Origin: Candidatus Latescibacterota bacterium
Lineage (GTDB): Bacteria; Latescibacterota; UBA2968; UBA8231
Direction of reading: 5' to 3'
Assembly (NCBI GenBank): GCA_965204725.1
Contig: OZ242005.1
Location: forward strand, 160,001 to 224,000
Length of the DNA: 64,000 nt
The translations under genes and the position numbers were made by a program. The notes below the pieces were generated by a model, which was not told the origin of the DNA, searched no databases, and worked only from the letters and a program-made list of their open reading frames with translations. This document shows positions 6,818 to 46,991 of the stretch, piece after piece; within the stretch, counting starts at the first letter, position 1, and the number at the start of each line of letters is the position of its first letter.

Positions 6818-9493
6818 CTAGCGGATCAAGGCCATCCGTCCTGGCGCGGTAAAGTCCTCTCCAGCGGTGAGCCGGTACAAATAGACGCCGCTAGCGGCTG
6901 GCCGGCCCTCGTCGTCGCGACCGTTCCAAGGAGTGCGATAGTGCCCGGCCGGTAGCATCTCGCCGCGGTACAGGGCGCGGACGCGGCGTCCGAGCGCGTC
7001 GTACACCACCAAATGCACGGGTGCGGTCCTCGCCACGTCGAAAGCAATGGTCGTGCTGGCGTTGAATGGATTGGGCCAGTTGCCGTGCAACCGAAATGCC
7101 TCGGGCACACCGGCAGCCTGCTCAGCAATCGCCGTCTGAATGTGATTTGGAGCACCCGGCGAGGGATCGCTCACGGTCTGAAAGTCGCCCGTAATGTCGG
7201 GGACGCGGGCAAAGCTGGTTCCCTCATCGGCCTGTCCCTTTTCCCAATCAATACTAGCGACTAGGGTTCCGTCGGCCGTCCAGATGCCCAACTCTTCGTC
7301 GCGCCCGAGGGCAAACCCGGGCCATCCGTCTTTGTCTAGCTCAATCTGTAGATACGCACCCGCCTCAATGACCGTGCCGGCCGGAAAGGCCGTGCGCTTG
7401 CTGGCGTCCGTCAGATCGTCGGCCATCACAAAGTCCGCGAGATCGATCCGCTCATTTGAGGCATTGTACAGTTCAAACCAATCGAGCGGATCGCCTTGGG
7501 CGGCGACCTCGTTGATGATCAGGGCGATTTCGGCCTCGGCTTCGTCGTCTCCATCTTCTGACGCAGCGTCTCCGCCAAAGCCAAACAAGGTGCCGTAGAA
7601 TCGGCCCGCAACCCTTGCACCCGGTTCGGTGCTGGCCTCGTCAAACTCAACCCCGCCTTGGCCGATCAGGTCAAACTGCTCCGGGGGACTATCCGGGGAT
7701 GGCAACCACAAGCGGTAGCCGCTGACCGCATCCATGTCAATGGGCAAGTTGGCACCGCTCACCATGCGGTCAATCGGCAATTCCACCGCGAGGATGTCTA
7801 TGGTAGCGTCCGGCCCGAGGCTAATGATAGAGATAGACGCCCTCTCTTCAGCGTCGCGTCCTTCGCCCTCTGCTCCCACCGCGTCCTCAAATTCTCCTTG
7901 GTCAATGGCATCGTCGCCGTTGGCGTCTATGGTCAGAATTTCTTCCCACGGCGGCAGGTCTTCCACGCCGAGTGTGCGGGCCGCATCGTAGTCGGCTCGG
8001 TCAAAAACGCCATTGCCGTTGCCGTCGAGCGCACCCAAGGTTTCATCCCAGCTTTCACCTCGCTCGGCCTCGTCTTCTTCAATGCCGGCCGTGGCCCCCG
8101 AGCGCCCAAAGCGTTGCTTTTTTCCACCCAACTCGTAATCGACAAATTCGACCGTCCCTTCCCCCAGCGGATTCTCGCTGGCACTCGATCCCCAAGTCGT
8201 CTCAAAGCGCAGGTCAAAAGAGCCTATCTCCGCCCAGCAGATGTCGGCCGCAGCCAAGGGCCAAGGCCAAGCGGGCGGCTCCGGCTCGAGATCGGCCAAA
8301 ATCACCGCCCGCCGTGCGCGGATGAACCGGCGCACCCGGTCTGCGTCGCGGGCGGCAATCTCCCGCCTTTCAGGTAGGATGTGCTGCTGGACGATCGCCG
8401 CCATCTCGTCGGCGAGTTGCAATAGTTCTTCTTCGTTCCAGACCGCATCGAGCAGCTCCTTGAGGCGGCTCACATAAGCGGCTTGCATTGCGTCGTCGCG
8501 GTACAAACGGTGGGCAATGGCCCCGTGCGCCATGACCGCTGGCGGCGACTCAAAATCGTCAAAGGGGATGTCGCTCGACCCGAAGACGTCATCTGCGCCC
8601 CAAGGCATGAACACAAACGGCGCGTCCGGGGCGCGGTAGATGTAGAAGTTGTTGCGGTTGCCGGCGTATCCATCCCAGTGGCCGATGAGCACTTCGATGG
8701 CCCAGAAGGTCAGGAAGTGGTCGAGATCAACAGCCGCGGCGAGGGCTTCTAAGCCGGCCGGGGAAGGGTCTTGCAGCGCGGCGACGACCGCGTCGATGTC
8801 CGACCAGTCGGCCGCGTCCTCGTTGGTTTTCTTTTGAAAGGTGCCGCGCCATCCGGGGCGAAAATCGCTCAGGGTTCCCTCGTAGAGGTTGCCGCTTGGA
8901 TCGGAAAAATTGCGCTGCAAAAAGGCCGTTTTCATGCTCTCGACGTGGACGTACAAGCCCAAGTTTTCGCCGTTTACTGCAACGGTGGCAAAGTTGCAGC
9001 GCGGCGCGGGCAGGCCAGCGGCCGCGAAGACGCGGTACGCCATGCACGTATTGATCATCGAAGGGTCTTGCTGGACGTTGTTCAGGGTCAGGCGCTTCAT
9101 CGCGCCGCCGAGGAGTTGGCCGTCGACGAACTTGTCGAAGCGGACCTTGAGCGCGGGTTTTTCCTTACTCAGCGACCCGAGGAACCCTTTCTTGCGGACG
9201 CCGACTTGGGTGTGGGTTTCGCCATCTACCGTTACCGTCGCCTCGAACCAAGAGAACACATCGTCCGGCGGGCTATCGAGGCAGTCGGCTCCGCCGAGAA
9301 TATCCACAAGGGTCCGCGTCTGGGCGCGCAGCCGGTCCCAATCCTCGGGTGCCATCTCAATGGTCACAGCGAGGACGCGGTCGAGGGCAAAATAGGGGTC
9401 GCTAGCCCCAACCCCAAACGCTGGGCGGACAGCCCAGAGAAACGCCGCAAGCGCGATCCCTGTGGCTCTGAATAAGTTCCGGTGATTTTTCAT
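6818..9493 (-). CDS. CotH kinase family protein with EF-hand pair, lamin-tail domain and FlgD-Ig/T9SS-like C-terminal domain
   Basis: VGVRKKG, K..LKVRFDKF, LTLNN..QDPS, HWDGY..NRNNFY, FMPWGAD; IINEV..DWFELYN; NWPNPFN..VYDALGRRVR..SGVYLYRL; SD aaagga before ATG 9493. Confidence 0.9.
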   Translation of the reverse strand: MKNHRNLFRATGIALAAFLWAVRPAFGVGASDPYFALDRVLAVTIEMAPEDWDRLRAQTRTLVDILGGADCLDSPPDDVFSWFEATVTVDGETHTQVGVRKKGFLGSLSKEKPALKVRFDKFVDGQLLGGAMKRLTLNNVQQDPSMINTCMAYRVFAAAGLPAPRCNFATVAVNGENLGLYVHVESMKTAFLQRNFSDPSGNLYEGTLSDFRPGWRGTFQKKTNEDAADWSDIDAVVAALQDPSPAGLEALAAAVDLDHFLTFWAIEVLIGHWDGYAGNRNNFYIYRAPDAPFVFMPWGADDVFGSSDIPFDDFESPPAVMAHGAIAHRLYRDDAMQAAYVSRLKELLDAVWNEEELLQLADEMAAIVQQHILPERREIAARDADRVRRFIRARRAVILADLEPEPPAWPWPLAAADICWAEIGSFDLRFETTWGSSASENPLGEGTVEFVDYELGGKKQRFGRSGATAGIEEDEAERGESWDETLGALDGNGNGVFDRADYDAARTLGVEDLPPWEEILTIDANGDDAIDQGEFEDAVGAEGEGRDAEERASISIISLGPDATIDILAVELPIDRMVSGANLPIDMDAVSGYRLWLPSPDSPPEQFDLIGQGGVEFDEASTEPGARVAGRFYGTLFGFGGDAASEDGDDEAEAEIALIINEVAAQGDPLDWFELYNASNERIDLADFVMADDLTDASKRTAFPAGTVIEAGAYLQIELDKDGWPGFALGRDEELGIWTADGTLVASIDWEKGQADEGTSFARVPDITGDFQTVSDPSPGAPNHIQTAIAEQAAGVPEAFRLHGNWPNPFNASTTIAFDVARTAPVHLVVYDALGRRVRALYRGEMLPAGHYRTPWNGRDDEGRPAASGVYLYRLTAGEDFTAPGRMALIR

Positions 9494-9568
9494 CTGTCCT
9501 TTTCGCTTGCTTGGAGGGTGGAAAGCGCGGCTGCCCAACGATAGGGCCGCTAGCGATTTTCGGCAACG

Positions 9569-9622
9569 GCACCGCCGCCGCCTGTTTAACACCGCCGCCC
9601 GCCTGTTTTAACACCGCCGCCC
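9569..9622. repeat. Short tandem repeat (caccgccgcc(c)gcctgttt(t)aa) x2.5 between divergent genes
   Basis: Direct reading of sequence. Confidence 0.75.
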
Positions 9623-9690: not shown

Positions 9691-10947
9691 ATGAATTACA
9701 GAAATCGCCACTTAGAGGCCAAAATTCTTCGCTATAAAGAAATTTTTCCCGTCCTGCTGGTGACTGGTGCTCGCCAAGTCGGCAAGAGCACCCTACTCGG
9801 CCATCTGTTCGGTGCTGGCATGCCCCATATTACCTTTGATCCGGTAATTGACGTTGGCAACGCCCGTCAAGACCCGGAATTCTTCATCGCTCAGCACCCG
9901 CCCCCTATCATATTGGACGAGATTCAGTACGCGCCCGAACTGCTGGCGGTTATCAAGCGCCGCGTCGATCGCGACGACGCGCCCGGACAGTATTTTCTGA
10001 CCGGTTCTCAGAACTTAGCCCTGCTCCGCGATGCGAGCGAAAGTCTAGCTGGCCGGGTCGTCGTCCTCGATCTAGGGCCTTTGACCCTGAGCGAACGTCA
10101 AGGGTGCGGATCCCGCGCTAGCCCTCGGTGGTTAGAGTTGCTGCTACAGGCCGGTGGTGCCCTGCCGGACTTGCACGACCAAGCCCGCATCCCATCGGTC
10201 GCGCCGCTGAGGACCGCATTCGAGGTGCTGTGGAGAGGAGGCTATCCCCGGACGCTGGACCAATCGCCGGACATCATTGCCGACATCATGCAATCCTACG
10301 TGCGGACCTATGTCGAGCGCGATGTGCGCCGCCTAGCCAGCGTGCAGGACCAGCAGCAGTTCACGCGCCTGCTGAGTCTGTGCGCCGCGTTGACCGCGCA
10401 GGAGGTCAATCACAGTCAGTTCGGCCGCGAAATCGGCATTACTCCGCAGACAGCCACCCGCTGGCTGCACATCCTCAAGGCGACCTACCAGTGGCTAGAG
10501 CTACCGCCCTACCACGGCAGCGCGATCAAACGGATCAGCGGCAAACCCAAAGGCTACCTGACCGACACCGGGCTGGCCGCTTTCCTACAGAGAATTTCTT
10601 CGCCCGCGGCCCTGTCTGGCCATCCCCTGCTCGGGGCACTTTTCGAGACGCACGTGGTGCTGGATATCCACCACACCTTCCACTGCTTGGCCATGCCGCC
10701 CCAAGTCTATCACTGGCGCACCCTCTCGGGTGCAGAGGTCGATTTGCTGCTGGAGCGCGATGGGATCTTCTGGCCGGTAGAAATCAAGAGCAGTACCCGC
10801 ATCACTAGCGCCGATGCGCGGGGCATTCGAGCATTCCGGGAGACGTATCCGACCCTGCGCCACGGCCCGGGCCTTATCGTCGCCCCAGTAGAAAAGGTTT
10901 TCGAGCTGCGCGACCAAGTACTCGTCATCCCCTATGATCTGCTGTAA
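9691..10947 (+). CDS. AAA_14 ATPase with DUF4143 domain
   Basis: Walker A GARQVGKST, Walker B IILDEIQ, LTGS, ESLAGR, GGYP, YVERDVR, C-terminal EVDLL..PVEIKS. Confidence 0.93.
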   Translation: MNYRNRHLEAKILRYKEIFPVLLVTGARQVGKSTLLGHLFGAGMPHITFDPVIDVGNARQDPEFFIAQHPPPIILDEIQYAPELLAVIKRRVDRDDAPGQYFLTGSQNLALLRDASESLAGRVVVLDLGPLTLSERQGCGSRASPRWLELLLQAGGALPDLHDQARIPSVAPLRTAFEVLWRGGYPRTLDQSPDIIADIMQSYVRTYVERDVRRLASVQDQQQFTRLLSLCAALTAQEVNHSQFGREIGITPQTATRWLHILKATYQWLELPPYHGSAIKRISGKPKGYLTDTGLAAFLQRISSPAALSGHPLLGALFETHVVLDIHHTFHCLAMPPQVYHWRTLSGAEVDLLLERDGIFWPVEIKSSTRITSADARGIRAFRETYPTLRHGPGLIVAPVEKVFELRDQVLVIPYDLL

Positions 10948-10949
10948 AC

Positions 10950-10987
10950 AGTAGCCGGCGATTAAGCCGATGAAGAACGGCGCGGCC
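10950..10987 (-). repeat. 38-bp direct repeat of 15715-15752 (3' part of membrane transporter gene)
   Basis: 36/38 identical, both differences synonymous in the AAPFFIGLIAGY frame. Confidence 0.9.
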
Positions 10988-11022
10988 CGGGAGTAGCGGT
11001 CAGCGGCTAGTCCACTGCCGCA

Positions 11023-11150
11023 CTAGGATTTTTTGCGCGCTTCAAGGGCGCGCTCCAACGGGGGCAAATCCGTCTGCCAGACGATGAGTAAATCCAAATC
11101 GCTGTCCCATTGGCTTATGACCCGTAGCATGGGAGCCGAATAGAACGATT
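11023..11150 (-). pseudogene. Fragment of minimal nucleotidyltransferase (MNT) gene
   Basis: IVLFGSHATG then frameshift then WDSDLDLLIVWQTDLPPLER; no start. Confidence 0.75.
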
Positions 11151-11154
11151 CACG

Positions 11155-11240
11155 CTTTTTGTCGCCGCCAGCGAGGGGGGTAACGGATACGGTGGTCGTG
11201 CCGCTGATTTCGCCGGCCTCAATCGTCAGGCCGCGCAAGA
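11155..11240 (-). repeat. 86-bp inverted copy of 14861-14946 (Ig-repeat surface gene fragment)
   Basis: 81/86 identical, 4 of 5 changes synonymous; LRGLTIEAGEI(S/T)GTTTVSVTPLAGGDKK. Confidence 0.92.
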
Positions 11241-11243
11241 CCG

Positions 11244-11269
11244 TCCCCCCATGCCTCGACACGGGGCGG
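11244..11269. repeat. REP hairpin cccc(a/g)tgcctcgacacgggg
   Basis: Inverse of inner hairpin of composite REPs at 28168 and 43746. Confidence 0.65.
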
Positions 11270-11434
11270 CAAGCCATAAAAGCGTCCGGCCCGAACAACT
11301 GAAATGTTCTTGCGCTTGCGCGGGATATAGACGTGACGCGCCGCTCATTTTCACTTATCTTGCAGGTATGGCCTAAACGCTCTCAGGCCATACCCAAACA
11401 GCCCCCCGAACCCCTCACTCGAAAGGAGTGAATC

Positions 11435-11851
11435 ATGACGGAACAACCCCTCCCCCTCACTCAAACGCAAGACCGTGACCTCCGCCTTGGCCGGTTAGAA
11501 GGCCTTGCCGATCAATTCGTTGAGCAAAGCCGCGAGACCAACGTCCGCTTAGGCCGCATGGAGCAAACCATTGACGCGCAAGGCCGCGAACTGCGGCAAG
11601 AGATCGCCGAGCAAAGCCGCGAGACCAACGTCCGCTTAGGCCGCATGGAGCAAACCATTGACGAACAAGGGCGCGACCTGCGGCAAGCAATCGCCGCACA
11701 AGGAATCCGCATCGACGAACAAGGCAGCGAACTGCGGCAAGAGATTGCCGTGCAAAGTCGGCGGATTGAGGTGCTGACGCGGTGGTTGGTGGGGATGCAG
11801 GTGGCTAGCTTGGTGGCGTTGGGGACGTTGATCTTGGTGCGCTTGCCCTGA
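11435..11851 (+). CDS. Coiled-coil protein with C-terminal TM anchor (DUF1640/CCDC90-like) and 87-bp internal tandem repeat
   Basis: SD aaaggag; EQSRETNVRLGRMEQTID.QGR.LRQ.IA repeated (11522, 11609); hydrophobic tail LTRWLVGMQVASLVALGTLILV. Confidence 0.75.
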   Translation: MTEQPLPLTQTQDRDLRLGRLEGLADQFVEQSRETNVRLGRMEQTIDAQGRELRQEIAEQSRETNVRLGRMEQTIDEQGRDLRQAIAAQGIRIDEQGSELRQEIAVQSRRIEVLTRWLVGMQVASLVALGTLILVRLP

Positions 11852-11859
11852 TCGAGCCG

Positions 11860-12312
11860 CCCCCCCCTACGTCGCCAGCGACGCGACCACAGCCTTCCTG
11901 TCATACTGAGCGTAGCGAAGTATCTCATACCCAACACTCCATACAGAACATCCCTTATAACGGCCTCGAAAGCATGTAAAGATGCTTCGGCTGCGCTGCG
12001 CTGCGCTCAGCAGGACACACAGGCGGCCTTTGCGTGAGGGCTTTTTTCGGCATATTTTAGTGTTTTATGAATGAGCAGGGACGAATCAGGAAGATGGTAA
12101 ATCAACTGAATTATGAGAGGATGTTGGCGGCGGGCCAGCCGACCGCGATGAACGCATCCTGCTTACAACATCAAGACTTAACGATTTGTCGTAACTCATT
12201 GAAAGACAAGCACTTACCCCCCCCCCCCCCCCCCCCCCCCCCACGACACCAGCGACGCGGCCACAGGCTTCCTGCTCCCTGTCATACTGAGCGCAGCGAA
12301 GTATCTCATACC
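11860..12312. repeat. Direct repeat pair (11860-11931, ~12235-12312) containing REP gtcatactgagcg(t/c)agcgaagtatctc, with inverted partner at ~11980-12016
   Basis: C-run + ccagcgacgcg.ccacag.cttcctg + gtcatactgagcg.agcgaagtatctcatacc in both copies. Confidence 0.85.
12192..12242. other. Imperfect palindrome TAACTCATTG-N5-CAAGCACTTA abutting a C26 homopolymer
   Basis: 12192-12216 palindrome, C run 12217-12242. Confidence 0.8.
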
Positions 12313-12496
12313 TCCCCCCCTTTGTGCCCTTTGTGCATTTTGTGGCTCTTTATGCCTTTTCTGCCTATCTTTCGGCCTTTCCCGCACGTTCATAAAAGGA
12401 AACGCAACTTATGCTTGCGAAAATACCCTTTTTAAGCATTTTTGAATGACCTAAACAATGTCTCTATCTAATTTGCATTCCACAGGAGGTTGAACG

Positions 12497-15400
12497 ATGA
12501 CATCCATGAGGCTTTTTGCATCCCGGCCCTACGCCCTTTACCTGCTGGTCTCAGGCTTGCTGCTGGGGTGGGCCGGCTCGGCAACCGCGACCATTACCCT
12601 GTCCGTCGATAAACCGCTAATACGCGAAGAAGACGACAGAGTCGAAATCACCGTGACAGCCGAAAGCGACGAAAACGTGACGGCGAATACGGTGGTCTCC
12701 CTGCAGCTTGGGGCCAAGACTTTCCCAAATGTCAACAATCCAGCAGAGAATCGCCTCCCCAACGGAGTAGGGAATATCTTCCCCGGCAGAACAATAGATG
12801 AACATGGTCGTATTGTGCTTACGTACCGATTGGCCTCAGGGGAACGCGCTGACTATGTAAGCCCGAACGCTCCGTGGTGGGCCTATCGCAATGCGGATCC
12901 TACGAGAGGTTCGATAGCTGCCAACAGGAAGCCGGGGGGGGATTGGAAAGACTGGCTCAATAGTCGCGCCCAGGTCAATAGCCAATTCTCCATCACGCTG
13001 CCGACGTTAGTGATCCCTAAGGACAAGAAAAAGGCGACCGGAACCATTGTCCTCACGAATCTCGATAACGACAAGCACGGTTTTTATAATACGTATGATG
13101 AGTTCACCATTCCTCATCAGCTTGACCTTGACGAGTCCGTTTATTTCTTCAATGGTGCTCTTAGGAACAGGGAGGGTTTTCAACGCCCCTGGGACTCTAA
13201 TTTGTTCAATTTCTACCGAAACCGCCCCCAGCGCGCGCTATCCCGATCTCATCATCAAAATTGACGGCCTTGCCGGTAGCGAGACGGTTAGGCAGACGGA
13301 GATTCGCGTAACGGACGACGAAAAGCTCAGCAGTCAGGTAAACCTTTCGTTTTCGCCGGCTAGTCTGAGCAAGGACGCGGGGCCGACCCCTGTTACCGTA
13401 ACCGCGACCTTAAACGGCTCTACGCTGCGGTCGGACCAAACCTTTACCTTGCTCTATCTGACACAGAGGGATATAACTGATCTCCCCGGCCCTGATTACC
13501 ATCATCTCCCGTTTGATGTTAATGCGTCCGATGTACTGACGCACGATACGGATTACTCGGCGCCGTCCGCGTCGATAACCATACGCCGGAACAAGCCATC
13601 GGGGAAGGCGACGATTACCATCGATCCCAAAGGCAAGGCTGGCCGCATCGCGTTATGGGGGGGGGGCGTCGAAGAAGAAGGTCCTCACAGGCGTTGACTT
13701 GAACCTCGATGGGGACATGAGCGACTCTCTGGCTCTTAGTAAACAATGGGGTTACGTCGCTGGTAATACTCATCGGCCCGACCGCGCCGTTACCTTCACC
13801 GAAGAAGGTCTAGGCTGCACCCCCACGACCCCCGGCGAACCCCTGTCCCAACACGATCTCAACTTTGATGGGCACTGCGACGGCCTTATTCGGGAAGCGT
13901 TAATCGGCGTCGACCTAAACGGTGATGGGACCATTCCTCCAGCGTTGAGAGATGGCCAACCCTTTACCTTCTCTGCCACTACCACACAAAATATCGGGGT
14001 TAATCCTAGTTTTGTTCTATTTGGCACAGACATAAGCTCAGTCCAAAACGGCGGAGCCCAGGTACTGACTGCGATAGCGGCTGGCCGGGTGCCTTGGATC
14101 GCTGACCGGGGTGCTCAGTATAGCCAACAGTTCAGTTTTGGTTATAATACTATCACTCTTCAGCCTGTTGATCCTTCTCGTCCCGCTCCCCAGTATTGGC
14201 CTACGTCGAATCCGAGGTTTGTGTTGGTTGAAAGCCAACTGCCGTACCATGTTGAGCTTCCCCTCCATCTCTTTGAGATAACGGACACCCCCGTTGTCAC
14301 CTTCAAAGACGCGACCGACGGCCTGACCGCCACCCCTTCAACGATCCGCGAGGGCGCCGGTCGGCAAGAAATCGCCCTGAAAGTCACCTTGAAGGCCGCC
14401 ACATCAGCGGATACGCGGGTGACGTTCACCATCACTCCGCAAGAGGGTCGCCGCGACATAGACTACACGGCCGTCTTGAGCGATCTCGTCATTCCCGAAG
14501 GCCAAACCTCCGCTTCAACCACGCTAGTGCTCACCCCGGTCGATAACGAGGTGGTAAACGACGCGCGGACATTCGACGTAGTCGCCACAATCGGCAGTTC
14601 GGACGACGCCCCCGAGGTCACCGAGACGATTACTATTGTAGATGACGAGACCCAGAGCACGCAGATCATGCTGACGGCCAGTCCCGCCGAACTCAAGGCC
14701 GGCACCGGAGCCAACAACGTCACGATCACCGGCACGTTAGACGGCCAAGCCTTCGACAAGGACGTGAACGTAGTCTTAGTCGTCACCACCGACACGGACG
14801 CCGACGGCGACGTGGACGACGCCGATAAAGCCGCCACCCGCGACACCGAATACACCGCCATCTTGCGCGGCCTGACGATTGAGGCGGGCGAAATCACCGG
14901 CACGACCACCGTATCCGTTACCCCGCTTGCCGGCGGCGACAAAAAGATCGGCCTAACCGCGCTGAAAAGCCCGGTCAAGAACAACGACGACGAGGACGTG
15001 ACGGTCACCACAACAGTCATCACCCTGAAAGACGGCGACCCAGAGACGGCCCTGGGCGGCCTCGTTTTCGACGAGGACGTAGATGTCGTCTCCACGGTAT
15101 TTGAATACGTCGTCGGCACGGCCATTGAGCCTTATGTCCTGCCCGCGGCCACCGGCGGCATTGGCGACAAGACCTACAGCGTGTCCGCCACGCTACCAGC
15201 CGGTCTGGTATTCGACGCGGAAACCCGCACCCTGTCGGGCACACCGCTGACAGCGGGCGACGCCACCGTCATCTACACGGTCATCGACAGCGCCCCGGAC
15301 GAAGTCAACACCGCCGTCCTCAGCCTGACCTTTGAGATCGGTACGGCCCCGCCCGCCACCGTGCGCGTCGCCAGCGTAACCTCAACGCATTCGTCCATCC

Positions 15401-15533
15401 GCGAGAACGGCGAGACCACCGCCATCCTCCTGACGGCAACGTTGACCGCTCCCGCCCCCAGTCCGAGACCATCCTGTTCACGATTGCCGCCCCCAGTTCC
15501 GGCACGCCCGCCGTGCGCGACGCCGATTACGCC
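12497..15533 (+). pseudogene. Secreted Calx-beta-like/He_PIG Ig-repeat surface protein, frameshifted three times and 3' truncated
   Basis: SD aggagg, signal peptide ..AGSATA; ORFs 12497-13264, 13047-13697 and 13699-15672 join by single-base changes at C5 13225, G10 13657, C5 15455; RDxDY repeats; LPAATGG..TYS..LPAGLVFD..TRTLSGTP; homology ends after AVRDADYA. Confidence 0.85.
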
Positions 15534-15637
15534 TCTCTCCAACAGAGGCCCCATTTTGCTTGCTAGTGGACGGTACGCAACGCATCGTTTCGGCTTACGA
15601 CCCGCCACCCGCCACCCGCCTGCCAAGGATCAAATCC

Positions 15638-17593
15638 TCACCCGTGCAGAATCGGATGCCCGTTGCCGGTAAAAAACGCCACATCTACGAGGAAGGAGAG
15701 GCCGACGCCGAGAAAGTAGCCGGCGATTAGGCCGATGAAAAACGGCGCGGCCTTGCGGTAGAGTTCAATGCCGCCAAAGCGCATGATCAAGCTCTTGGCC
15801 GCCCACGCGACAAAGATGGCCGCGGCTTGGTTCCGCACCATCCAAACTGCGGAGATGGCCAAGCCCACCGGATGCAGGGGCCACCACGGGAAGCGATACT
15901 GCATGAACGTCAAAACCGCCATGGCCGCAGCGCCGAGGCCGAAAAAGCCCAGCTTTTGCGCGTGCAAGTCGGCCGGGGTTTTTATCTTGGCCATCACATC
16001 GCCAAAGGCCATCACACCGGCGCCGGAGGAAACGCGAAAAATCCAAGAGTTGAAGTTGGAAGCCCCCTGCTCGTAAGCCATGGCAATGAGATTGGTCAGG
16101 GAAATCGCGAAGGATAGGACCACGGCCAAGGCGATGGCCAAGACAAAGCCGCGGCGGGCAATGCGCAGGCTGTGCTGCAACTTGGCGGCGTGCGCGGCCG
16201 AGGGCATGAAGATGGACTGCACGTCGCCGAAAAAGGAATAGGTCAGCCCCAAGGCCGCCAAACCCGTCGGCGAAATGGCGCTGGTGCCCAGCGTCATCAT
16301 CGTCATGGCCTGACTGACGACCGGCGTGGTCAGGTAAAACGCGCCCGTTTGAACCACCAAGCGCGTAATGCCCAAGTAGGCGATGAGCACGCCGGCCAAA
16401 AAGAGCGCGGCCACCGACCATTCCATGCCGGCCTTGTGCAGCCAAGTTAGCATGTAGAACGTGCCCAGCAAAAGGCCCAGCACGGCGGCGCGATAGGACA
16501 GCAACTCGCGGCGGTCGTCAATCGGGCAGGCTGGGTTCCACGCCTTGCGGAACACATCCTTGAGGTGGTCGCGTGCCATCCACAGCCCCCACAGCACGAG
16601 CATCACAAACGCCCCCCAACACTGCCACGAAGTCGAAGGCAGTCCCCAAACGAACTTATCCGCCTCGGTGACGCCGAGGCCAAAGCGGTTGAACAAACCC
16701 TCCTCGAGCAGCGTTAGCAAAAAGAAGAACCAGATACTGAAGGTGACGTTGAGGTTGGCAAAATACATGAAGCCGATGACCGGAAAGTAGAAGCGAATGT
16801 TGATGGTCGGAAAGCCGTGCGCGATTTGGATGGGGTGATGCCACTCGATTTTGGGGAAAAAGTGAAAAAAAAAGCCGACGATGTTCCACAAGACGATGCC
16901 CAAGGGAATGGCCGCCCCGGCCCAGAAGGCTTTGCTGTATAGGACCGCTGGCAACCGGCGGGCACTATCGGCGTTGGCGACGAGGGCTTGGGGCACTTCC
17001 ATCAGCGGGTAGGCCAACCGCTCGCGCTCGACCCACTGTTTGCGGAGGATGACCACCACGCAGAAGCAGACCCAGTACAAAGTCCATAGAAAGCTCAGCC
17101 ACCAAACCAGCGGCATGGCCCAAGCGGCGAGCAAGGTGCTCCACGGAATGGGTTCGCCGAGGGGCAGGCCCTCGAAAAACCAAGTCATGGCCAAGCCGTC
17201 GTTGGACGGCAGCAGCCAAGCGGGCAGGTAGGGCACCACGTAAGTGCCCCATTGATTCTCCGCGGACGCAAAGTAATACGGCGTCGTTGGTATCGCGAGG
17301 AAGTAGCCGATGAGGAAAACCGGGATGCCAGTACAGACCAACCCCATGACGACGACCGTGATCATCTCGGCCGGGCGCAGTGCCCAGTGGGGATTGAGGG
17401 TCTTGAGCAGGGCATTGGCAAAGATGAGGCAAATAAAGAGAAACCCCACCCCAATCGGAAAGAAGGACCAAGTCATCTCGGACGAGCCAAAGGTCCAGAT
17501 CGAGTGCGGCCCCCCCAAGCTGATCAACGCCACCACGGCGCAGCCCACGAACACGGAGCGCCCGGTGACGGCTGTTGCGGGATGGGTTGCCAA
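15638..17593 (-). CDS. Polytopic membrane protein, DUF6785/DUF6784-type putative peptide transporter, copy 2
   Basis: Many hydrophobic segments; LRKQWVERERLAYPL, RFPWWPLHPVG, KAAPFFIGLI. Confidence 0.8.
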   Translation of the reverse strand: MATHPATAVTGRSVFVGCAVVALISLGGPHSIWTFGSSEMTWSFFPIGVGFLFICLIFANALLKTLNPHWALRPAEMITVVVMGLVCTGIPVFLIGYFLAIPTTPYYFASAENQWGTYVVPYLPAWLLPSNDGLAMTWFFEGLPLGEPIPWSTLLAAWAMPLVWWLSFLWTLYWVCFCVVVILRKQWVERERLAYPLMEVPQALVANADSARRLPAVLYSKAFWAGAAIPLGIVLWNIVGFFFHFFPKIEWHHPIQIAHGFPTINIRFYFPVIGFMYFANLNVTFSIWFFFLLTLLEEGLFNRFGLGVTEADKFVWGLPSTSWQCWGAFVMLVLWGLWMARDHLKDVFRKAWNPACPIDDRRELLSYRAAVLGLLLGTFYMLTWLHKAGMEWSVAALFLAGVLIAYLGITRLVVQTGAFYLTTPVVSQAMTMMTLGTSAISPTGLAALGLTYSFFGDVQSIFMPSAAHAAKLQHSLRIARRGFVLAIALAVVLSFAISLTNLIAMAYEQGASNFNSWIFRVSSGAGVMAFGDVMAKIKTPADLHAQKLGFFGLGAAAMAVLTFMQYRFPWWPLHPVGLAISAVWMVRNQAAAIFVAWAAKSLIMRFGGIELYRKAAPFFIGLIAGYFLGVGLSFLVDVAFFTGNGHPILHG

Positions 17594-17600
17594 CGCGGCC

Positions 17601-19586
17601 TCAGCCGTGCAGGATGGGGTGGCCGTTGCCGGGGAAGAAAATCATATCGACGATAAACGAGATCCCCACGCCAAAGAAGTGCCCGAGAATGAGGCCGATG
17701 AAAAACGGCGCGGCCTTGCGGTAGAGCTCGATGCCGCCAAAGCGCATGATCAGGCTCTTGGCCGCCCACGACACAAAAATCGCCGGGGCTTGGTTCCGCA
17801 CCATCCAGATCGCGGAAATCGCCAAGCCCACCGGATGCAGGGGCCACCACGGGAAGCGATACTGCATAAACGTCAAAACCGCCATGGCCGCGGCGCCAAG
17901 GCCGAAAAAGCCCAACTTTTGTGCGTGGAAATCGGCCGGGGTTTTTATTTTGCTCAGCGCGTCGTCAAAGGAGCGCACCCCCGCGCCCGAGGAGACGCGG
18001 AAAAACCAAGAGTTGAAGTTGGAGGCCCCCTGCTCGTAGGCCATGGCAATGACGTACACAATGGCGGCGACAAAGCCGACCACTAGGGCCAGTGCAATGG
18101 CCAAGCACAGGCCGCGGCGGCTCATCCGCATGGCGTCGTGCAGCCGGGCGGCATGGGCGGCCGACGGCATGAAAATCGACTGCACATCGCTGAAGAACCC
18201 ATAACTCATCCCCAAGGCCGCCAAGCCCGTCGGCGAAATCGCACTCGTGCCAAAGGTCATCATGGTCATGGCTTGGCTGACTACGGGCGTCGTCAGGTAA
18301 AAGACGCCGGCCTGCACCACCAAGCGGGTGATGCCCAAGTAGGCAATGAGCACGCCGCCCAAGAAAAACGCGGCTACCGACCATTCCATGCCAGCTTTGT
18401 TGAGCCACGCCAGCATATAGACGACCCCGACCAATAGGCCGACGACCGCACTGCGATAGGACATCAACTCGCGGCTGTCGTCAACCGGATGGGCGGGATT
18501 CCACGCTTTGCGCGCCACGTCTTTTAGGTGATCGCGCGCCATCCACAGCCCCCACAGCACCAGCACCACAAAAGCCCCCCAGCACTGCCAAGACGTCGAG
18601 GGCAAGCCCCACACGAAGTTGTCCGCCTCGGTGACGCCCACGCCAAAGCGGTTGAACAGCCCCTCTTCGACCAGCAGCAACAAAAAGAAGAACCAGATAC
18701 TGAAGGTGACGTTGAGGTTGGCGAAATACATGAAGCCGACGACCGGGAAGTAGAAGCGAATGTTGATCGTGGGAAAGCCGTGCGCGATTTGGATGGGATG
18801 GTTCCATTCGATCGTGGGAAAAAAGTGAAAGAAAAAGCCGACGATGTTCCACAAGACGATGCCCAACGGAATAGCCGCCCCCAGCCAAAAGACCTTGTTG
18901 CGCAAAACGGCGGGCACACGCGCCGGGCCATCGGCGTCCGCCACGAGGGCTTGGGGCACTTCCATCAGCGGATAGGCCAGCCGCTCGCGCTCGACCCACT
19001 GCTTGCGCAATATGACGACCAAGCAAAAACAGACCGCGTACAAGGTCCAGATAAAGCTCAGCCACCAAAACAGCGGCATGGCCCACGCATCAAGCAAGGT
19101 GCCCCAAGGCATCGGCTCGCCCAAGGGTAGCCCCTCGAAGAACCAAGTCATGGCCAAACCGTCGTTGCTCGGCAACAGCCACGCCGGCAGGTAGGGCAAC
19201 ACGTAGGTTCCCCACTGGTTTTCAGCCGAGGCAAAGTAGTAGGGCGTAGTGGGGATCGACAGCACGTAGCCCATCATAAAGATGGGGATGCCGGTCGTCA
19301 CCAAGCCCATGACGACGACCGTGATCATCTCGGCCGGGCGCAAAGCCCAGCCGGGGTTGATCGTCTTGAGCAGGATGTTGAGCAGGATGAGGCAGCAGAA
19401 CGAGAAGCCGACCGCAATCGGAAAGAACGACCACGTGATTTCGGACGACCCCAAGACCCAAATGGCGTAGGGCGCACCCAAACACACCACGAGGACTTGG
19501 ACGACGCCGAGCACCAACGAGCGGAGCGTGAGGCCGCTAGCCGCGCCTCGGTGCTGGGTAGGGGCCGCAGTCGGCGAAGTCATCAA
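17601..19586 (-). CDS. Polytopic membrane protein, DUF6785/DUF6784-type putative peptide transporter, copy 1
   Basis: Close tandem paralog of 15638-17593; LTLRSLVLG N-terminus and the same motifs. Confidence 0.8.
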   Translation of the reverse strand: MMTSPTAAPTQHRGAASGLTLRSLVLGVVQVLVVCLGAPYAIWVLGSSEITWSFFPIAVGFSFCCLILLNILLKTINPGWALRPAEMITVVVMGLVTTGIPIFMMGYVLSIPTTPYYFASAENQWGTYVLPYLPAWLLPSNDGLAMTWFFEGLPLGEPMPWGTLLDAWAMPLFWWLSFIWTLYAVCFCLVVILRKQWVERERLAYPLMEVPQALVADADGPARVPAVLRNKVFWLGAAIPLGIVLWNIVGFFFHFFPTIEWNHPIQIAHGFPTINIRFYFPVVGFMYFANLNVTFSIWFFFLLLLVEEGLFNRFGVGVTEADNFVWGLPSTSWQCWGAFVVLVLWGLWMARDHLKDVARKAWNPAHPVDDSRELMSYRSAVVGLLVGVVYMLAWLNKAGMEWSVAAFFLGGVLIAYLGITRLVVQAGVFYLTTPVVSQAMTMMTFGTSAISPTGLAALGMSYGFFSDVQSIFMPSAAHAARLHDAMRMSRRGLCLAIALALVVGFVAAIVYVIAMAYEQGASNFNSWFFRVSSGAGVRSFDDALSKIKTPADFHAQKLGFFGLGAAAMAVLTFMQYRFPWWPLHPVGLAISAIWMVRNQAPAIFVSWAAKSLIMRFGGIELYRKAAPFFIGLILGHFFGVGISFIVDMIFFPGNGHPILHG

Positions 19587-39142: not shown

Positions 39143-42100
39143 CTACCTGAGCAGCACCATCTTTTCGACCCGAGAGATCGAGCCGGCTTGCAGCCGGTAG
39201 AAGTATATCCCCGACGCCAAGGGCTGCCCGTGGTCGTCGCGCCCGTCGTAGTTGACGGCGTAGTGGCCCGCTGACTGATGCTCGGCCACGAGGGTGCGGA
39301 CCACCTGCCCCAAGGCGTTGTGAACGGTCAACTGCACTGCGGCGGCTTGCGGCAGTCCGTACTGAATCGTCGTGGTGGGGTTGAACGGGTTGGGGTAGTT
39401 GGGGCCGAGGGCAAACTTGCCGATGGAGCCGACGCGCCCTTCGGTGGCGGTCATGGCCGATTGCGCGACCGGCGCGGCTTGGCTCTTCAGGGCGGCGTCC
39501 TGCTCGGTAAACGCGAATGCTTCCGGCAGCAGCACGGCCACGTCTTGCGCGCCTTGCGGATTGAGCCGCACCTCTGAGGATACGGCTTTGGGCCGAGCGG
39601 CCCCATTGGTGCCGGAGGTGATCCTAAGGTACGTCCGCTGGCCGCCGCACTCGGCGGCTACCGCCCAGCGAGTAGCCCGATAATCCAGCGTCTGCACGAG
39701 GGCACTGCCCACTGAAACGCCCGGAACCGCATCCACCCTAGCCCACGGGATGAACTCGGCACGGGGTTCGGCCAGCGCGACCACTCGGCCGTGCTCGTCG
39801 GCACTGTGAGTCATCCACACCTCGCGGTAAATGCGGTACGCGTCCACAGCGGCGTGTTCACTCGGCAGCGCCCACGTCAGCAGGACCGAGCCGCGCCAAC
39901 CGCCAGCGAGATCGGCCCCGAGGTAGTCTTCAGCGCGCACCCATTCGGGAGCGTCCCGGGGGCATCCAACCCTACAACCCGAGCCGGGATCCCCTGCCAC
40001 CCTTAAACAGGCGCGCTGGCCGCCGCACTCAGCGGCTACGGCCCAGCGAGTGGCCCGATAATCCAGCGTCTTCACGAGGGCACTGCCCACCGAAACGCCC
40101 GGAACCGCATCGATCCTAGCCCACGGGACGAACTCGGCGCGGGGCTGGTCCAGCGCGACCACCCGGCCGTGTTCATCGGCGCTGTGGGTCATCCGCACCT
40201 CGCGGTAAATGCGGTACGCGTCCAAGAGGGCGTGATTCCTCGACAACGCCCACGTCAGCAGGACCGAGCCATCCCAACCGCCAGCGCGGTCCGCGCCGAG
40301 GTAGTTTTCAGCACGCATCCAATCGGGAGCATCCAAACCCATCTGGACCGTTATGCTAAATGGCAGGGTGGCCGCATCGCCATCGGCATCGGTGGCCGCG
40401 TAGATACTTGTATAAGCGATCATCCGGCCCTCGTCACCCAAGACTGCGGGGGAGCCTTTCAACTGGCGAGAGTTGGCGTTGAACACCAAGCCGTCCGGCA
40501 GGTTCCGCAGACTATACGTCAGCGGGCCGTTGCCGCCGGTGGCGGCTGGCAGGGGCCGAGCAACCGCTTGGCAAGCGGTCGCCGTCAGCGGCTCAATCGT
40601 TGCGTCGCCAAAGGTCGGCTCTAGATCCGAGGGGACGATGGTGATAGTACAGAGCAGCGTCGCCGCATCGCCATCGGCGTCGGTGGCCATGTACGTGGCG
40701 ACGGTCGTGTCGGTCGCCGTCGCCGCACCGCCCAACTGCCGCTTCACCGCGTTGAACACCAAGCCATCCGGCAGGTTCAAAAAGCTATACGTCAGCGGAT
40801 CGTTGCCGCCGATAGCCTGCGGCAGCGTCCGTGGGGCAATCGCTCGGTCCACCTCGGCGAACAGATCGGCAAGCGTTGCGTCACCAAAGGTCGGCACTAG
40901 ATCCGGGGAAATGATGGTGATGGGAAACGGCAGGGTGGCTACATCGCCATCGGCGTCAATGGCCGCGTAGGTAGCGACGGTCGTGTCGGTCGCCATCGCC
41001 GCGCCAACCAACTGCCGCTTCACCGCGTTGAACACCAAGCTGTCCGGCAGATCCCACAGGCTATACCGCAGCGGGGGATCGCCGCCGGTGGCCGACGGCA
41101 GGGGCCAAACAACCGCTTGGTCCACTTCGGCGAACAGAGCGGGAATGCTCGCGTCGCCAAAGGACGGTTTTAGATCCGGGGGCGTGACCGTGATGGTGAA
41201 CAGCAACGAGTCGGCATCATAGTTGGCATCGCGAACCCGATAAATCATGGTCTCGGCACTGTCGGTTTCGGTGGTGGGAGTGCCCCGCAACTGGCGGGTG
41301 TCGGCGTGGAACATCAAGCTGTCCGGCAGGTTGCCGAGCAAGCTATAGGTCAGCGGGGGGTCGCCGCCGGTGGCCTTAGGCAGCTTCCGCGGGGCAATCG
41401 GTTGATGGACCTCGGCGACGAGGTCGGCAATCATCGCGGTGTCCGCGAAAGCCGGGAACCGATCCTCAAAGGAGGACGGCGGGACTGAGGAGACTGGGGG
41501 GACTGAGGAGACTGGGGGAGACGCGGCGGGAGGACCGACCACGTCGTTGTCGATGAGGCCGACGGTCATCTCAAGGGTGCGGCCATCGTAGTCCGCACCA
41601 CTTGCGGTAAACCTGAATGTCGCACGCCGACGAGGCCCAGCGTTGTACTCCGTGTCTTCTACCCCGGAAAACGTCACGTTCTGCTTGGTCTTCCAGTTCG
41701 ATGGCGTAAAACTCAACGACGTTTTATCCATGGTCACCAGCGTCGGATCCTGATTGGTGGTGAGGTTTATCGTGACATTCCCCTTGGGTTCGCTCGTTAT
41801 CCACACTTTTTGAGTAACGGTGCCGCCCTCGCGGACGCTCAAAGACGAGTCAAAAACGCGGATGTCCACCTGTTCATTATTTGCCACAACGACTCGCACC
41901 GTGCCGCTGACATTGTTGTAGTCCCCGCCGCTCGCAGTATGGGTAATCGTCGTCCGCCGTCCGAACTCATCGGCTACATCGTCATCAACCGCTGTCGCGG
42001 TGACCGTCTGCGCTGTATTCCAGTTCATTGTGGTGAAGGTCAAGCTCGAAGCTGACACCGTCGCCACGGTCTGGTCGCTGCTCGCCACCGCCACGGTGAC

Positions 42101-43720
42101 CTGCGTGGTCGGCTCGGTAGCCAGCACCACGGTGTAGCTTTTCGTGCCCCCGGCCTCATCGGCTATGTGAATGTCGCTCGCCGAAAACGACAACGCCGGG
42201 CTTGGCGCGGCCTCATTGTCGATGAGGCCGACGGTCATCGTATGGGTAAGGCCGTCGTAGTCCGCACCGCTTGCAGTAAACTTGATGGTCGCCTGCCGAC
42301 TAGCCCCTTGGTTGTACTCCGTATCTTCCACCCCGGAAAATGTCACGTTCTGCTTGGTCTTCCAGTTCGATGACGTAAAACTCAACGACGTTTTATCCAT
42401 AGTCACCAGAGTCGGGTCCTGATTGGTGAGGTTTATCGTGACATTCCCCTTGGGTTGGCTCGTTATCCACACCTTTTGAGTAACGGTCCCGCCCTCACGG
42501 ACGCTCAAAGACGAGTCGCGAACCTGTATGGTCGTCTGTTCATTGCTTGCCACAGCGACTCGCACTATGCCGCTGACATTGTTGTAGTTCCCGCCGCTCG
42601 CAGTGTGGGTGATCGTCGTCCGCCGTCCGAACTCATCGGCTACATCGTCATCAACCGCTGTCACGGTGATCGTCTGCGCTGTGTTCCAGTTCATTGTGGT
42701 GAAAGTCAAGCTCGAAGTTGACACCGTCGCCACGGTCTGATCGCTGTTCGACACCGCCACGGTGACCTGCACGGTCGGCTCGGCAGCCAGCACCACGGTG
42801 TAGCTTTTCGTGCCCCCGGCCTCATCGGCTATGTGAATGTCGCTCGCCGAAAACGACAACGCCGGGCTTGGCGCGGCCTCATTGTCGATGAGGTCGACGG
42901 TCATCCTAAGAGTAAAGCCGTCGTAGTCCGCATCGCTTGCAGTAAGCTTGATGGTCGCACGCCGACGAGCCCCACCGTTGTACTGAGTGTCTTCTACCCC
43001 AGAAAACGTCACGTCCTGCTTGGTCTCCCAGTTCGATGGCGTAAAACGCAACGACGTTTTATCCATGGTCACCAGCGTCGAGTTCTGATTGGTGAGGGTT
43101 ATCGTGACAATCCCTTTAGGTTCGCTCGTGATCCACACCTTTTGAGTAACGGTGCCGCCCTCGCGGACGCTCAAAGACGAGTCGCGAACCTGTATGGTCG
43201 CTTGGTCATCGTCTTGCACAGTGACTCGCACCGTGCCGCTGACATTGTTATAGCCCCCGCCGCTCGCAGTGTGAGTGATCGTCGTCCGCCGTCCGAACTC
43301 ATCGTCTATGTCGTCATCAACCGCTGTCACGGTGACCGTCTGCGCTGCATTCCAGTTCATTGTGGTGAAAGTCAAGCTCGAAGGAGATACCGTCGCCACG
43401 GTCCGGTCACCACTCGACACCGCCACGCTGACCGGCCCGGTCGGCTGGGTAGCCAGCACCACAGTATAACTCGTCGTGCCGGCGGCCTCACTGGCTATGT
43501 GAACGTTGCTCGCCGAAAACGTCAACGCCGGCGTGGTCTGCGCGTAGAGGGGGGCCGCGACGACGAGCGCGTACGCCAGACCGACAAACGCGCTGCCCAT
43601 TCGCCGACGCACGAGGAGATGTCTGCTACACCTTCGCAAGGGAGCCACAAACCGCACAAGGCCGGCGCTGCGGGGGCGCGTCAGACGACGGCTGCTTCCT
43701 ACAAAGGCTTTACTGACCAT
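39143..43720 (-). CDS. Large secreted Ig-repeat protein (3x Calx-beta-like pairs, 4x He_PIG-like, duplicated unknown domain, FlgD-Ig/T9SS-like CTD)
   Basis: LTFT..NWN.AQTVTVTAVDD repeats; LP.ATGGD.PL.YSL..LPDGL.F repeats; NYPNPFNPTTTI..NALGQVVRTL..SGIYFYRL. Confidence 0.9.
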   Translation of the reverse strand: MVSKAFVGSSRRLTRPRSAGLVRFVAPLRRCSRHLLVRRRMGSAFVGLAYALVVAAPLYAQTTPALTFSASNVHIASEAAGTTSYTVVLATQPTGPVSVAVSSGDRTVATVSPSSLTFTTMNWNAAQTVTVTAVDDDIDDEFGRRTTITHTASGGGYNNVSGTVRVTVQDDDQATIQVRDSSLSVREGGTVTQKVWITSEPKGIVTITLTNQNSTLVTMDKTSLRFTPSNWETKQDVTFSGVEDTQYNGGARRRATIKLTASDADYDGFTLRMTVDLIDNEAAPSPALSFSASDIHIADEAGGTKSYTVVLAAEPTVQVTVAVSNSDQTVATVSTSSLTFTTMNWNTAQTITVTAVDDDVADEFGRRTTITHTASGGNYNNVSGIVRVAVASNEQTTIQVRDSSLSVREGGTVTQKVWITSQPKGNVTINLTNQDPTLVTMDKTSLSFTSSNWKTKQNVTFSGVEDTEYNQGASRQATIKFTASGADYDGLTHTMTVGLIDNEAAPSPALSFSASDIHIADEAGGTKSYTVVLATEPTTQVTVAVASSDQTVATVSASSLTFTTMNWNTAQTVTATAVDDDVADEFGRRTTITHTASGGDYNNVSGTVRVVVANNEQVDIRVFDSSLSVREGGTVTQKVWITSEPKGNVTINLTTNQDPTLVTMDKTSLSFTPSNWKTKQNVTFSGVEDTEYNAGPRRRATFRFTASGADYDGRTLEMTVGLIDNDVVGPPAASPPVSSVPPVSSVPPSSFEDRFPAFADTAMIADLVAEVHQPIAPRKLPKATGGDPPLTYSLLGNLPDSLMFHADTRQLRGTPTTETDSAETMIYRVRDANYDADSLLFTITVTPPDLKPSFGDASIPALFAEVDQAVVWPLPSATGGDPPLRYSLWDLPDSLVFNAVKRQLVGAAMATDTTVATYAAIDADGDVATLPFPITIISPDLVPTFGDATLADLFAEVDRAIAPRTLPQAIGGNDPLTYSFLNLPDGLVFNAVKRQLGGAATATDTTVATYMATDADGDAATLLCTITIVPSDLEPTFGDATIEPLTATACQAVARPLPAATGGNGPLTYSLRNLPDGLVFNANSRQLKGSPAVLGDEGRMIAYTSIYAATDADGDAATLPFSITVQMGLDAPDWMRAENYLGADRAGGWDGSVLLTWALSRNHALLDAYRIYREVRMTHSADEHGRVVALDQPRAEFVPWARIDAVPGVSVGSALVKTLDYRATRWAVAAECGGQRACLRVAGDPGSGCRVGCPRDAPEWVRAEDYLGADLAGGWRGSVLLTWALPSEHAAVDAYRIYREVWMTHSADEHGRVVALAEPRAEFIPWARVDAVPGVSVGSALVQTLDYRATRWAVAAECGGQRTYLRITSGTNGAARPKAVSSEVRLNPQGAQDVAVLLPEAFAFTEQDAALKSQAAPVAQSAMTATEGRVGSIGKFALGPNYPNPFNPTTTIQYGLPQAAAVQLTVHNALGQVVRTLVAEHQSAGHYAVNYDGRDDHGQPLASGIYFYRLQAGSISRVEKMVLLR
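41545..43532 (-). repeat. Three tandem 666-bp intragenic repeats
   Basis: caacgccgg anchors end at 43531, 42865, 42199 (period 666). Confidence 0.92.
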
Positions 43721-46905: not shown

Positions 46906-46912
46906 CGCGACG

Positions 46913-46961
46913 CGCCCTCACCCGCGCTCGGCCGGGATCTGGCGCAGCAATTCGCTCCAAG
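46913..46961 (+). repeat. 49-bp direct repeat, left copy (duplicate of hpcH-like gene 3' end)
   Basis: 48/49 identical to 49434-49482. Confidence 0.95.
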
Positions 46962-46991
46962 GGGAACTCAACATCAACCAAGGAGTTCGTC

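Follow-up and report, generated by a model that had tools for sequence, protein, structure and literature searches.

Copy A and its gene family

The DNA analysed here, called the window below, is a stretch of 64,000 nucleotides from a sponge-associated Candidatus Latescibacterota bacterium (assembly GCA_965204725.1, contig OZ242005.1, positions 160,001 to 224,000 of the forward strand). At its nucleotides 12497–15532 lies a broken gene that we call copy A. Copy A is probably a decayed member of a multigene family of surface proteins that are exported by the type IX secretion system (T9SS) and carry, on a conserved scaffold, eight variable loops shuffled between copies. The host is represented by a metagenome-assembled genome (MAG) that is 94% complete, consists of a 5.38-Mb single-contig chromosome (C1) and a further 51.7 kb, and has a GC content of 60%.

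A listing of open reading frames (ORFs), together with a three-frame translation, identifies 12497–15532 as a single long coding region spread across three frames, with at least three frameshifts. The part at 12497–14280, which the first-pass annotation had singled out, is the front of that coding region and does not consist of separate genes. From the ATG at 12497 the gene is read in frame 2 up to a C5 run, in frame 0 up to a G10 run, in frame 1 up to 15461 and again in frame 0 up to 15532 (Table 1). Nucleotide alignment with the paralogs places the third frameshift, after 15461, at a 1-nt deletion outside any homopolymer. In the same alignment paralog similarity stops abruptly at 15532, with approximately 460 residues, including the T9SS sorting domain, missing from copy A; no sorting-domain match was found in its ORFs in the window. 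The stalk part that remains contains one He_PIG domain (28.4 bits, cut-off 24). Because of the three frameshifts and the missing sorting domain, copy A cannot yield a surface protein. It is a frameshifted and truncated pseudogene that has kept its leader, ribosome-binding site, start codon and putative signal peptide.

All 11 listed public sequencing runs hold part of the stretch (five sponge metagenomes, three marine metagenomes and three runs with coded organism names). The comparison used assembled contigs, which drop rare variants. Contigs of runs X9 and X10, which are one sample and possibly the source sample, bridge frameshift 1 (12959–13265), and contigs of X9, X10 and X11 bridge frameshift 3 together with the truncation junction (15408–15700). 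No differences were found in either interval, indicating that frameshift 1, frameshift 3 and the junction are real sequence. The G run at 13657–13666 has ten Gs in the window and one more (G11) in a contig of run X1, both lengths being out of frame. Contig joints that skip 72–78 nt at 14124, as well as loose ends at 13236 and 15530, fit paralogs with common conserved flanks. A further joint, from 11958 to 15637 (skipping 3678 nt), was left uninterpreted, since its shorter side comprises only 25 letters and it may stem from a repeat.

Searching the whole genome with tblastn returned four intact close paralogs of copy A (B, C, D and E; 1467–1485 residues), a more distant paralog F (1380 residues), still more distant members (G, F0, F2 and F3) and two 3' fragments (E2 and H). 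The intact members consist of a putative signal peptide, a head of about 570 residues that belongs to no Pfam family, a stalk of immunoglobulin (Ig)-like domains and a T9SS type A sorting domain. By eye, the N-terminus of every copy is hydrophobic and ends in Ala-x-Ala, consistent with a putative Sec signal peptide. The best domain scores of paralog C are 80.3 bits for He_PIG (cut-off 24; three stretches), 50.9 for FlgD_ig (cut-off 27) and 35.8 for the sorting domain TIGR04183 (cut-off 23); the sorting domain is thus found in this intact paralog and not in the window copy. Pfam searches of the head gave only sub-threshold hints of FixG_C, Dockerin_1 and EF-hand_5.

Among T9SS components we searched for the PorU sortase, which is encoded at C1:347348–350497 (NF033707, 623.3 bits, cut-off 420). 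A further 50 matches to the PorU model are limited to its C-terminal, sorting-domain-like part, and T9SS cargo therefore appears to be abundant in this genome. By analogy with T9SS type A cargo, the sorting domain would anchor the protein to the cell surface and the Ig-like stalk would carry the head at its far tip.

The C-terminal two-thirds of the protein are widespread, with matches at E ≤1e-30 in 26 of 31 genomes (30 relatives and the host genome itself). For the head, the matches listed outside the host genome come only from the relatives G007 and G004, at 45–48% identity. Thirteen closer head homologs, 67–83% identical over the head, were obtained from other assemblies. A scan of genome contigs returned three related loci, all in one other Candidatus Latescibacterota MAG, while neither the scan of Joint Genome Institute (JGI) metagenome contigs with the leader motif described below followed by six Cs nor the scan with the family alignment returned any match.

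Frameworks, variable regions and exchange between copies

In a protein alignment of copies A–F, near-invariant blocks alternate with indel-rich blocks over the head. The first-pass annotation had proposed such an alternation of framework segments with low-GC inserts. We scored its intervals as given and, in addition, partitioned the alignment independently; identities are mean pairwise values among A–E. The proposal holds on its own intervals: frameworks are 0.78–0.92 identical and inserts 0.34–0.62, and the GC content at third codon positions (GC3) is 0.67–0.79 in the former and 0.42–0.57 in the latter (Table 1). Aligning the paralogs and orthologs gave a sharp contrast. The alignment partition yields seven variable blocks in A–E, which become eight regions (H1–H8) when the thirteen foreign homologs are added.

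The ratio of nonsynonymous to synonymous divergence (dN/dS), computed by the Nei-Gojobori method for ten pairs, is 1.05–1.50 in the variable blocks in all ten, compared with 0.21–0.54 in the head framework and 0.06–0.24 in the stalk. The frameworks and the stalk are under purifying selection and kept alike between copies. The variable blocks evolve without purifying selection and possibly under diversifying selection, a cautious reading because the alignment within these blocks is poor. Synonymous divergence separates the two classes as well: in nine of the ten pairs it is 0.32–0.73 in the variable blocks, approximately two to three times the 0.14–0.27 of the head framework, and in the remaining pair, B and D, it is low in both (0.13 versus 0.08). 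We read this contrast as homogenisation of the frameworks and not of the cassettes.

The history of the copies changes along their length. B and D are 97–100% identical at the nucleotide level in the signal peptide, 59–70% in H1–H3 and 100% over alignment columns 359–821 (about 1.1 kb). In H2, copy A is nearest to B, with 75% nucleotide identity versus 53–58% to C, D and E, which group together. The informative sites switch accordingly: in columns 108–167 the AB split is favoured by 17 sites and the BD split by 2, and in columns 304–641 BD is favoured by 61. In our own implementation of the pairwise homoplasy index (PHI) test, the observed value was 0.277 compared with a permuted mean of 0.350 (standard deviation 0.004), and none of 500 permutations fell at or below it. 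The same test on the full length of B–E likewise gave no value as low in 500 permutations. In a GENECONV-like test, the longest identical run of B and D covers 236 of 907 polymorphic sites, a length not reached in 2000 permutations; the result was also 0 of 2000 for B/C, C/D and C/E. The site-pattern switches and both recombination tests, which are positive, support the earlier proposal that variable loops are exchanged between paralogs via the conserved frameworks.

Homologs from other assemblies point the same way. The thirteen foreign homologs keep the frameworks and the eight variable positions and combine the variable types differently. Homolog P0015 has H1–H4 in common with B and H6 in common with P0008, and P0004 and P0013 have H3 and H5 in common and nothing else. 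The H2 and H4 types of copy A resemble those of P0012, an intact foreign homolog. Variable segments are therefore combined differently from copy to copy and from strain to strain, and the breakpoints of recombination lie in the frameworks.

The composition of the variable regions sets them apart from the rest of the gene. Across A–E, in the pseudogene and the intact copies alike, GC3 is 0.15–0.24 higher in conserved than in variable blocks. Circular shifts of the block labels reached this gap in 6 of 532 cases for A, 4 of 527 for B, 4 of 529 for C, 6 of 516 for D and 1 of 538 for E. The deficit is confined to third positions, GC at codon positions 1 and 2 being no lower in the variable blocks; the genome median of GC3 is 0.77. 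In copy A the variable blocks are richer than the head framework in aromatic residues (12.0% versus 5.6%), Asn (8.6% versus 4.6%) and Pro (8.6% versus 5.6%), the three enrichments that had been noted for the inserts at first reading.

The sequence CCWGG is depleted about nine-fold in the genome (1146 sites, 0.21 per kb, observed/expected 0.11). In copies A–F the variable blocks hold 8 sites in 3615 nt (2.2 per kb), the head framework 2 in 6177 nt (0.32 per kb) and the stalk 1 in 14997 nt (0.07 per kb). By simple arithmetic, 2.2 per kb is approximately the random expectation for a sequence of this composition. The absence of depletion indicates that the variable cassettes have not been in the genome, or not been there unchanged, long enough for purging. 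Copy A has sites at 12970, 13188, 14058 and 15051, the first three of which fall in inserts, as had been pointed out. As a separate observation, the genome-wide scarcity of CCWGG points to a history of Dcm or EcoRII-type methylation or restriction.

To describe the fold of the head, we use an AlphaFold2 model of paralog C (residues 31–700, 50-row alignment). Its mean predicted local distance difference test score (pLDDT) is 75, with values below 50 mainly in H1, H2 and H6. Coil is predicted for 69% of variable and 52% of framework residues, strand for 18% and 39%, respectively. Foldseek assigns the model a probability of 1.0 to the NCX1/CALX CBD12 structures 3rb7, 3us9 and 8sgt; the TM-scores are low because the model is multi-domain. 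VIA gives Z-scores of 8.2–8.4 to CALX CBD1 (3ead and 3e9t), which lie within the range that the tool calls common. The VIA alignment places a first sandwich in model residues 1–245 (about 100 of the first 241 aligned) and a second from 244 to about 564, and insertions of approximately 75–190 residues per sandwich hold the variable regions. The model suggests that H1–H3, as well as the whole calcium-motif segment with H5–H8, are insertions into the two sandwiches. The calcium-motif insertion contains three DxNxDG-type motifs and two Cys residues that are invariant in 31 sequences; the ESM Atlas held no usable match for it.

The framework thus appears to resemble the β-sandwich of the Calx-beta domains (NCX1/CALX CBD1–CBD2) and of the Ig-like stalk domains of large bacterial adhesins. 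It differs from them in its large insertions with variable regions, and the listed matches include no Calx-beta (PF03160), whether for paralog C at E ≤0.1 or for its head at E ≤10. Some distant relatives bear a precomputed PF03160 annotation. The first-pass annotation had described the architecture as antibody-like. Ig-like frameworks are supported by the likeness of the model to Calx-beta sandwiches; the likeness to antibodies is an analogy only, and about half of the variable sequence lies in the calcium-motif insertion rather than in a plain Ig loop.

Leader, repeat tracts and neighbouring genes

The leaders of A–E all end in a 25-nt motif with a C tract after it; the tract begins 213–425 nt before the start codon. 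The tract consists of 26, 18, 26 and 19 uninterrupted Cs in four of the copies and of an interrupted run of 16 Cs in B. The motif has 13 copies in the genome, each followed by a C tract (13/13) that is either pure (C6–C26) or interrupted by T or A, and a control with the reversed pattern gave 0 matches. Loci beyond the window include C1:973506, 1929265, 3825543, 4824809, 4855153 and 5205941. The eight motif copies outside the leaders of A–E precede genes for a leucine-rich repeat (LRR) lipoprotein, an ankyrin lipoprotein, two FN3/PQQ-dehydrogenase-like proteins and a tetratricopeptide repeat (TPR) protein, as well as other genes. Two of these eight loci have an ORF beginning within the motif, in which the C tract is translated as prolines leading into a signal peptide. 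The chromosome has 19 G or C runs of at least 10 nt, and 11 of them are located at a motif copy or within a gene of the family.

In another Latescibacterota MAG, the motif and a C9-T-C6 tract lie upstream of a family gene (L002:1229–1271), beside the remnant of a dehydrogenase-type N-terminus. The leader therefore looks like a portable module. The motif was not found in the 30 relatives searched. A scan of 11800–12520 for sigma-70 promoters, which does not cover other promoter types, returned none, and Rfam gave no RNA family in 10900–12600 at E ≤1. An upstream ORF at 12067–12435, which would read the C tract as poly-proline, was not adopted, because the tract lengths are not multiples of three across the copies and stop codons lie between this ORF and the main gene.

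Repeat runs are also found within the coding regions. All close copies have a G8 run at a conserved KPGGDW motif (12934–12941 in the window), and B has in addition an in-frame G11 in H2 (C1:4922141). Frameshifts may arise preferentially at such poly-G runs, as one did at the G10 run of copy A.

Phase variation through the leader tracts is plausible from their sequence and position, and a phase-variable leader shared by the family with other secreted or eukaryote-like genes would be possible. Extending the exchange of loops, one could propose that the variation is programmed: slippage in the poly-C tracts and in the poly-G runs inside the genes would switch paralogs, and broken copies would serve as silent cassette donors. 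This fits the regular association of the motif with C tracts, in all five close copies and genome-wide, and the concentration of long G and C runs at the motif and in family genes. The occurrence of motif and tract at a family gene of another MAG, the two lengths of the frame-breaking G run (G10 in the window, G11 in X1), the G11 of B and the likeness of the H2 and H4 types of copy A to those of P0012 also agree with it. However, public contigs are cut at the poly-C tract, none crossing it, and none shows a second tract length. The tract lies 213–425 nt upstream of the start codon, and the scan for sigma-70 promoters was negative. Homopolymer lengths are prone to error in a MAG built from long reads. 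The family has several full-length copies with their own leaders instead of one expression site with promoterless cassettes, and copy A, with one frameshift outside repeats and a truncated end, fits plain decay. We regard programmed variation as a tentative extension, with the odds against it.

The surroundings of copy A contain further traces of the family. Upstream lies a gene for a tail-anchored coiled-coil repeat protein; tblastn gives 13 genomic matches that extend into its C-terminal membrane segment, and several of these directly flank family members. Its sole Pfam hint is DUF16, below cut-off. An inverted stalk fragment starts near the family position at which the 3' fragment H begins. 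Both this fragment and a duplicated piece of the DUF6785 gene 3' end are remnants of rearrangement at the locus. Three more large genes in the window encode proteins with T9SS-type C-terminal domains (6818–9592 and 39143–43720 on the minus strand, 46662–49403 on the plus strand); they are a CotH kinase with a lamin-tail domain and two He_PIG proteins.

Table 1 Features of copy A and its surroundings in the window. Identity is the mean pairwise value among A–E.
Feature	Position	Strand	Remarks
Duplicated piece of DUF6785 gene 3' end	10950–11002	+	85% identical to 15715–15767
Inverted 86-nt stalk fragment	11155–11240	−	94% complementary to 14861–14946
Tail-anchored coiled-coil repeat gene	11435–11851	+	repeats of 29 residues (87 nt)
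Terminator-like hairpin and T run	12025–12051	+	closes the tail-anchored gene; start of the conserved leader, which is kept in A–E
25-nt motif TAASTNNTTGWAARACAANNNNTTA	12192–12216	+	leader of copy A
Poly-C tract, 26 nt	12217–12242	+	255 nt upstream of start codon; candidate slippage switch
AGGAGG ribosome-binding site and ATG start of copy A	12484–12499	+	direct sequence reading
Reading-frame segment 1	12497–13229	+	first Calx-beta-like sandwich and H1–H3; ends at frameshift 1, C5 run 13225–13229
Putative signal peptide of copy A	12497–12589	+	within segment 1
Reading-frame segment 2	13230–13666	+	second Calx-beta-like sandwich and H4; ends at frameshift 2, G10 run 13657–13666
Reading-frame segment 3	13667–15461	+	calcium-motif insertion with H5–H8, then conserved Ig-like stalk; ends at frameshift 3
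Framework F1	12497–12712		identity 0.78, GC3 0.71
Insert I1	12713–12975		identity 0.50, GC3 0.56
Framework F2	12976–13070		identity 0.87, GC3 0.72
Insert I2	13071–13237		identity 0.34, GC3 0.57
Framework F3	13238–13455		identity 0.88, GC3 0.67
Insert I3	13456–13535		identity 0.34, GC3 0.42
Framework F4	13536–13655		identity 0.92, GC3 0.75
Insert I4	13720–14270		identity 0.62, GC3 0.51
Framework F5	from 14271		identity 0.92, GC3 0.79
Hypervariable region H1	12719–12754	+	identity 0.14
Hypervariable region H2	12782–12931	+	identity 0.30; A groups with B
Hypervariable region H3	13121–13235	+	identity 0.17; length varies; contains frameshift 1
Hypervariable region H4	13458–13529	+	identity 0.33
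Hypervariable region H5	13747–13767	+	identity 0.34
Hypervariable regions H6 and H7	13930–14085	+	identity 0.38; pLDDT below 50 in the corresponding model segment
Hypervariable region H8	14122–14187	+	identity 0.21
Conserved stalk part	14188–15532	+	Calx-beta-like domains and one He_PIG; identity 0.92, GC3 0.78
Tandem DUF6785 and DUF6784 membrane proteins	15638–17593, 17601–19586	−	360 and 378 bits; first convergent with copy A, just beyond 15532

Explanations, related systems and meaning

We favour the explanation that the loops of this family are shuffled between copies. Homologous recombination or gene conversion would use the frameworks, 60–220 nt long, as pairing sites and would thereby reshuffle the loop cassettes, and selection by phage or host recognition would favour new combinations. 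GC-biased conversion may account for the higher GC3 of the frameworks.

Several points weigh against this explanation. The estimated contamination of the MAG is 9.97%. Alignment within the variable blocks is unreliable, and a dN/dS of 1–1.5 is no proof of positive selection, as it fits absent constraint too. Copy A is non-functional, and this locus consequently says nothing on present-day participation in exchange. In a four-gamete-style test on the types of the variable regions, all four combinations occurred in only 2 of 28 region pairs, a weak count because most types are singletons. Some of the foreign homologs come from contigs of 4.5–6 kb, on which an assembler may jump between copies at the frameworks, and the mosaic between strains could therefore be partly artificial.

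It is improbable that the pattern reflects ordinary divergence of paralogs, with loops evolving faster under relaxed constraint and no exchange. The dN/dS near 1 of the variable parts would agree with this, as would their mostly coil structure and low model confidence. However, a single history is rejected by both the PHI test and the longest-run test, B is identical to D along some 1.1 kb yet groups with A in H2, and variable modules that are identical recur in differing combinations from one assembly to another.

An assembly artefact, in which mosaics and frameshifts would arise from collapsed or chimeric joining of repeats, is less probable still. Besides the contamination estimate, it draws on frameshifts 1 and 2, which fall within homopolymers (C5 and G10), and on the length of the G run, which differs between data sets. 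Against this, the chromosome is a single contig, the other long genes of the window are intact, and the public contigs that bridge frameshift 1, frameshift 3 and the truncation agree with the window without a difference.

Rewriting of the variable regions by a diversity-generating retroelement, which resembles the present case only in concentrating hypervariability in parts of a ligand-binding surface protein and which varies its targets by template-driven substitution at adenines, can be set aside within the 94% completeness of the genome, because no match to the reverse transcriptase RVT_1 (PF00078) was found there (controls matched in 3 of 14 genomes); moreover, the variation seen here is rich in indels, extends over eight regions in the N-terminal half and involves cassette exchange.

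Among known systems, the family works like the Opa-type multi-locus variable antigens of Neisseria, which are closest to it in logic; it is not homologous to Opa. Both have several complete, scattered loci, conserved frameworks with hypervariable surface segments, mosaics between loci and repeat tracts tied to each locus. Opa proteins are small β-barrel outer-membrane proteins and are switched by a pentamer repeat inside the coding region. The proteins described here are T9SS cargo of about 1470 residues with variable parts on Calx-beta-like sandwiches at the stalk tip, the poly-C tract of putative effect lies upstream, and the bacterium is sponge-associated and not a pathogen. The scattered Opa loci, their recombination into mosaics and their repeat tracts are described in the abstracts of PMC3745409 and bioRxiv 10.64898/2026.02.02.703239.

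TprK of Treponema pallidum, pilE/pilS, VlsE and Msp2/P44 are similar in that variable regions lie between conserved sequence that guides segmental conversion, with partial copies in the genome. In such silent-cassette systems a single expression site is supplied by many donor cassettes that lack promoters. Here, by contrast, we found four intact close copies with their own leaders, one 5' pseudogene and two 3' fragments, and even copy A, though broken, still has the same leader, a ribosome-binding site and a start codon; the arrangement of one expression site with promoterless donors is not what the genome contains.

Families of hypervariable surface proteins that recombine are known from textbooks as tools with which pathogens meet adaptive immunity. 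Full-text literature searches, with most subscription journals outside them, returned no paper on a family of this kind in sponge symbionts or among T9SS cargo. The passages available to us of a paper on sponge Latescibacterota (PMC12993501) deal with ankyrin, LRR, TPR and similar proteins and mention neither T9SS nor Ig-like domains.

It is conceivable, if rather doubtful at present, that a non-pathogenic, uncultured sponge symbiont runs a full surface-variation system of the pathogen type, with eight cassettes reshuffled by conversion, reservoirs in broken copies and a shared, mobile leader, switched by poly-C, that also serves genes for ankyrin, LRR and other secreted eukaryote-like proteins. 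If this is true, the sponge or its phages exert a recognition pressure specific enough to select antigenic variation. The pattern found in this family combines three elements: conserved frameworks that act as handles for recombination, eight loop cassettes and a repeat tract at each locus. The low GC3 and the lack of CCWGG depletion set the cassettes apart as more recent than the remaining genome or as foreign to it, and offer a simple way to find such cassettes elsewhere. The head domain, the variable regions and the poly-C leader are targets that can be followed in metagenomes, transcriptomes and binding assays. Pathogen-type logic in a sponge-associated Latescibacterota raises the question of the recogniser, which may be innate receptors of the sponge, its phagocytic cells or the dense phage community.

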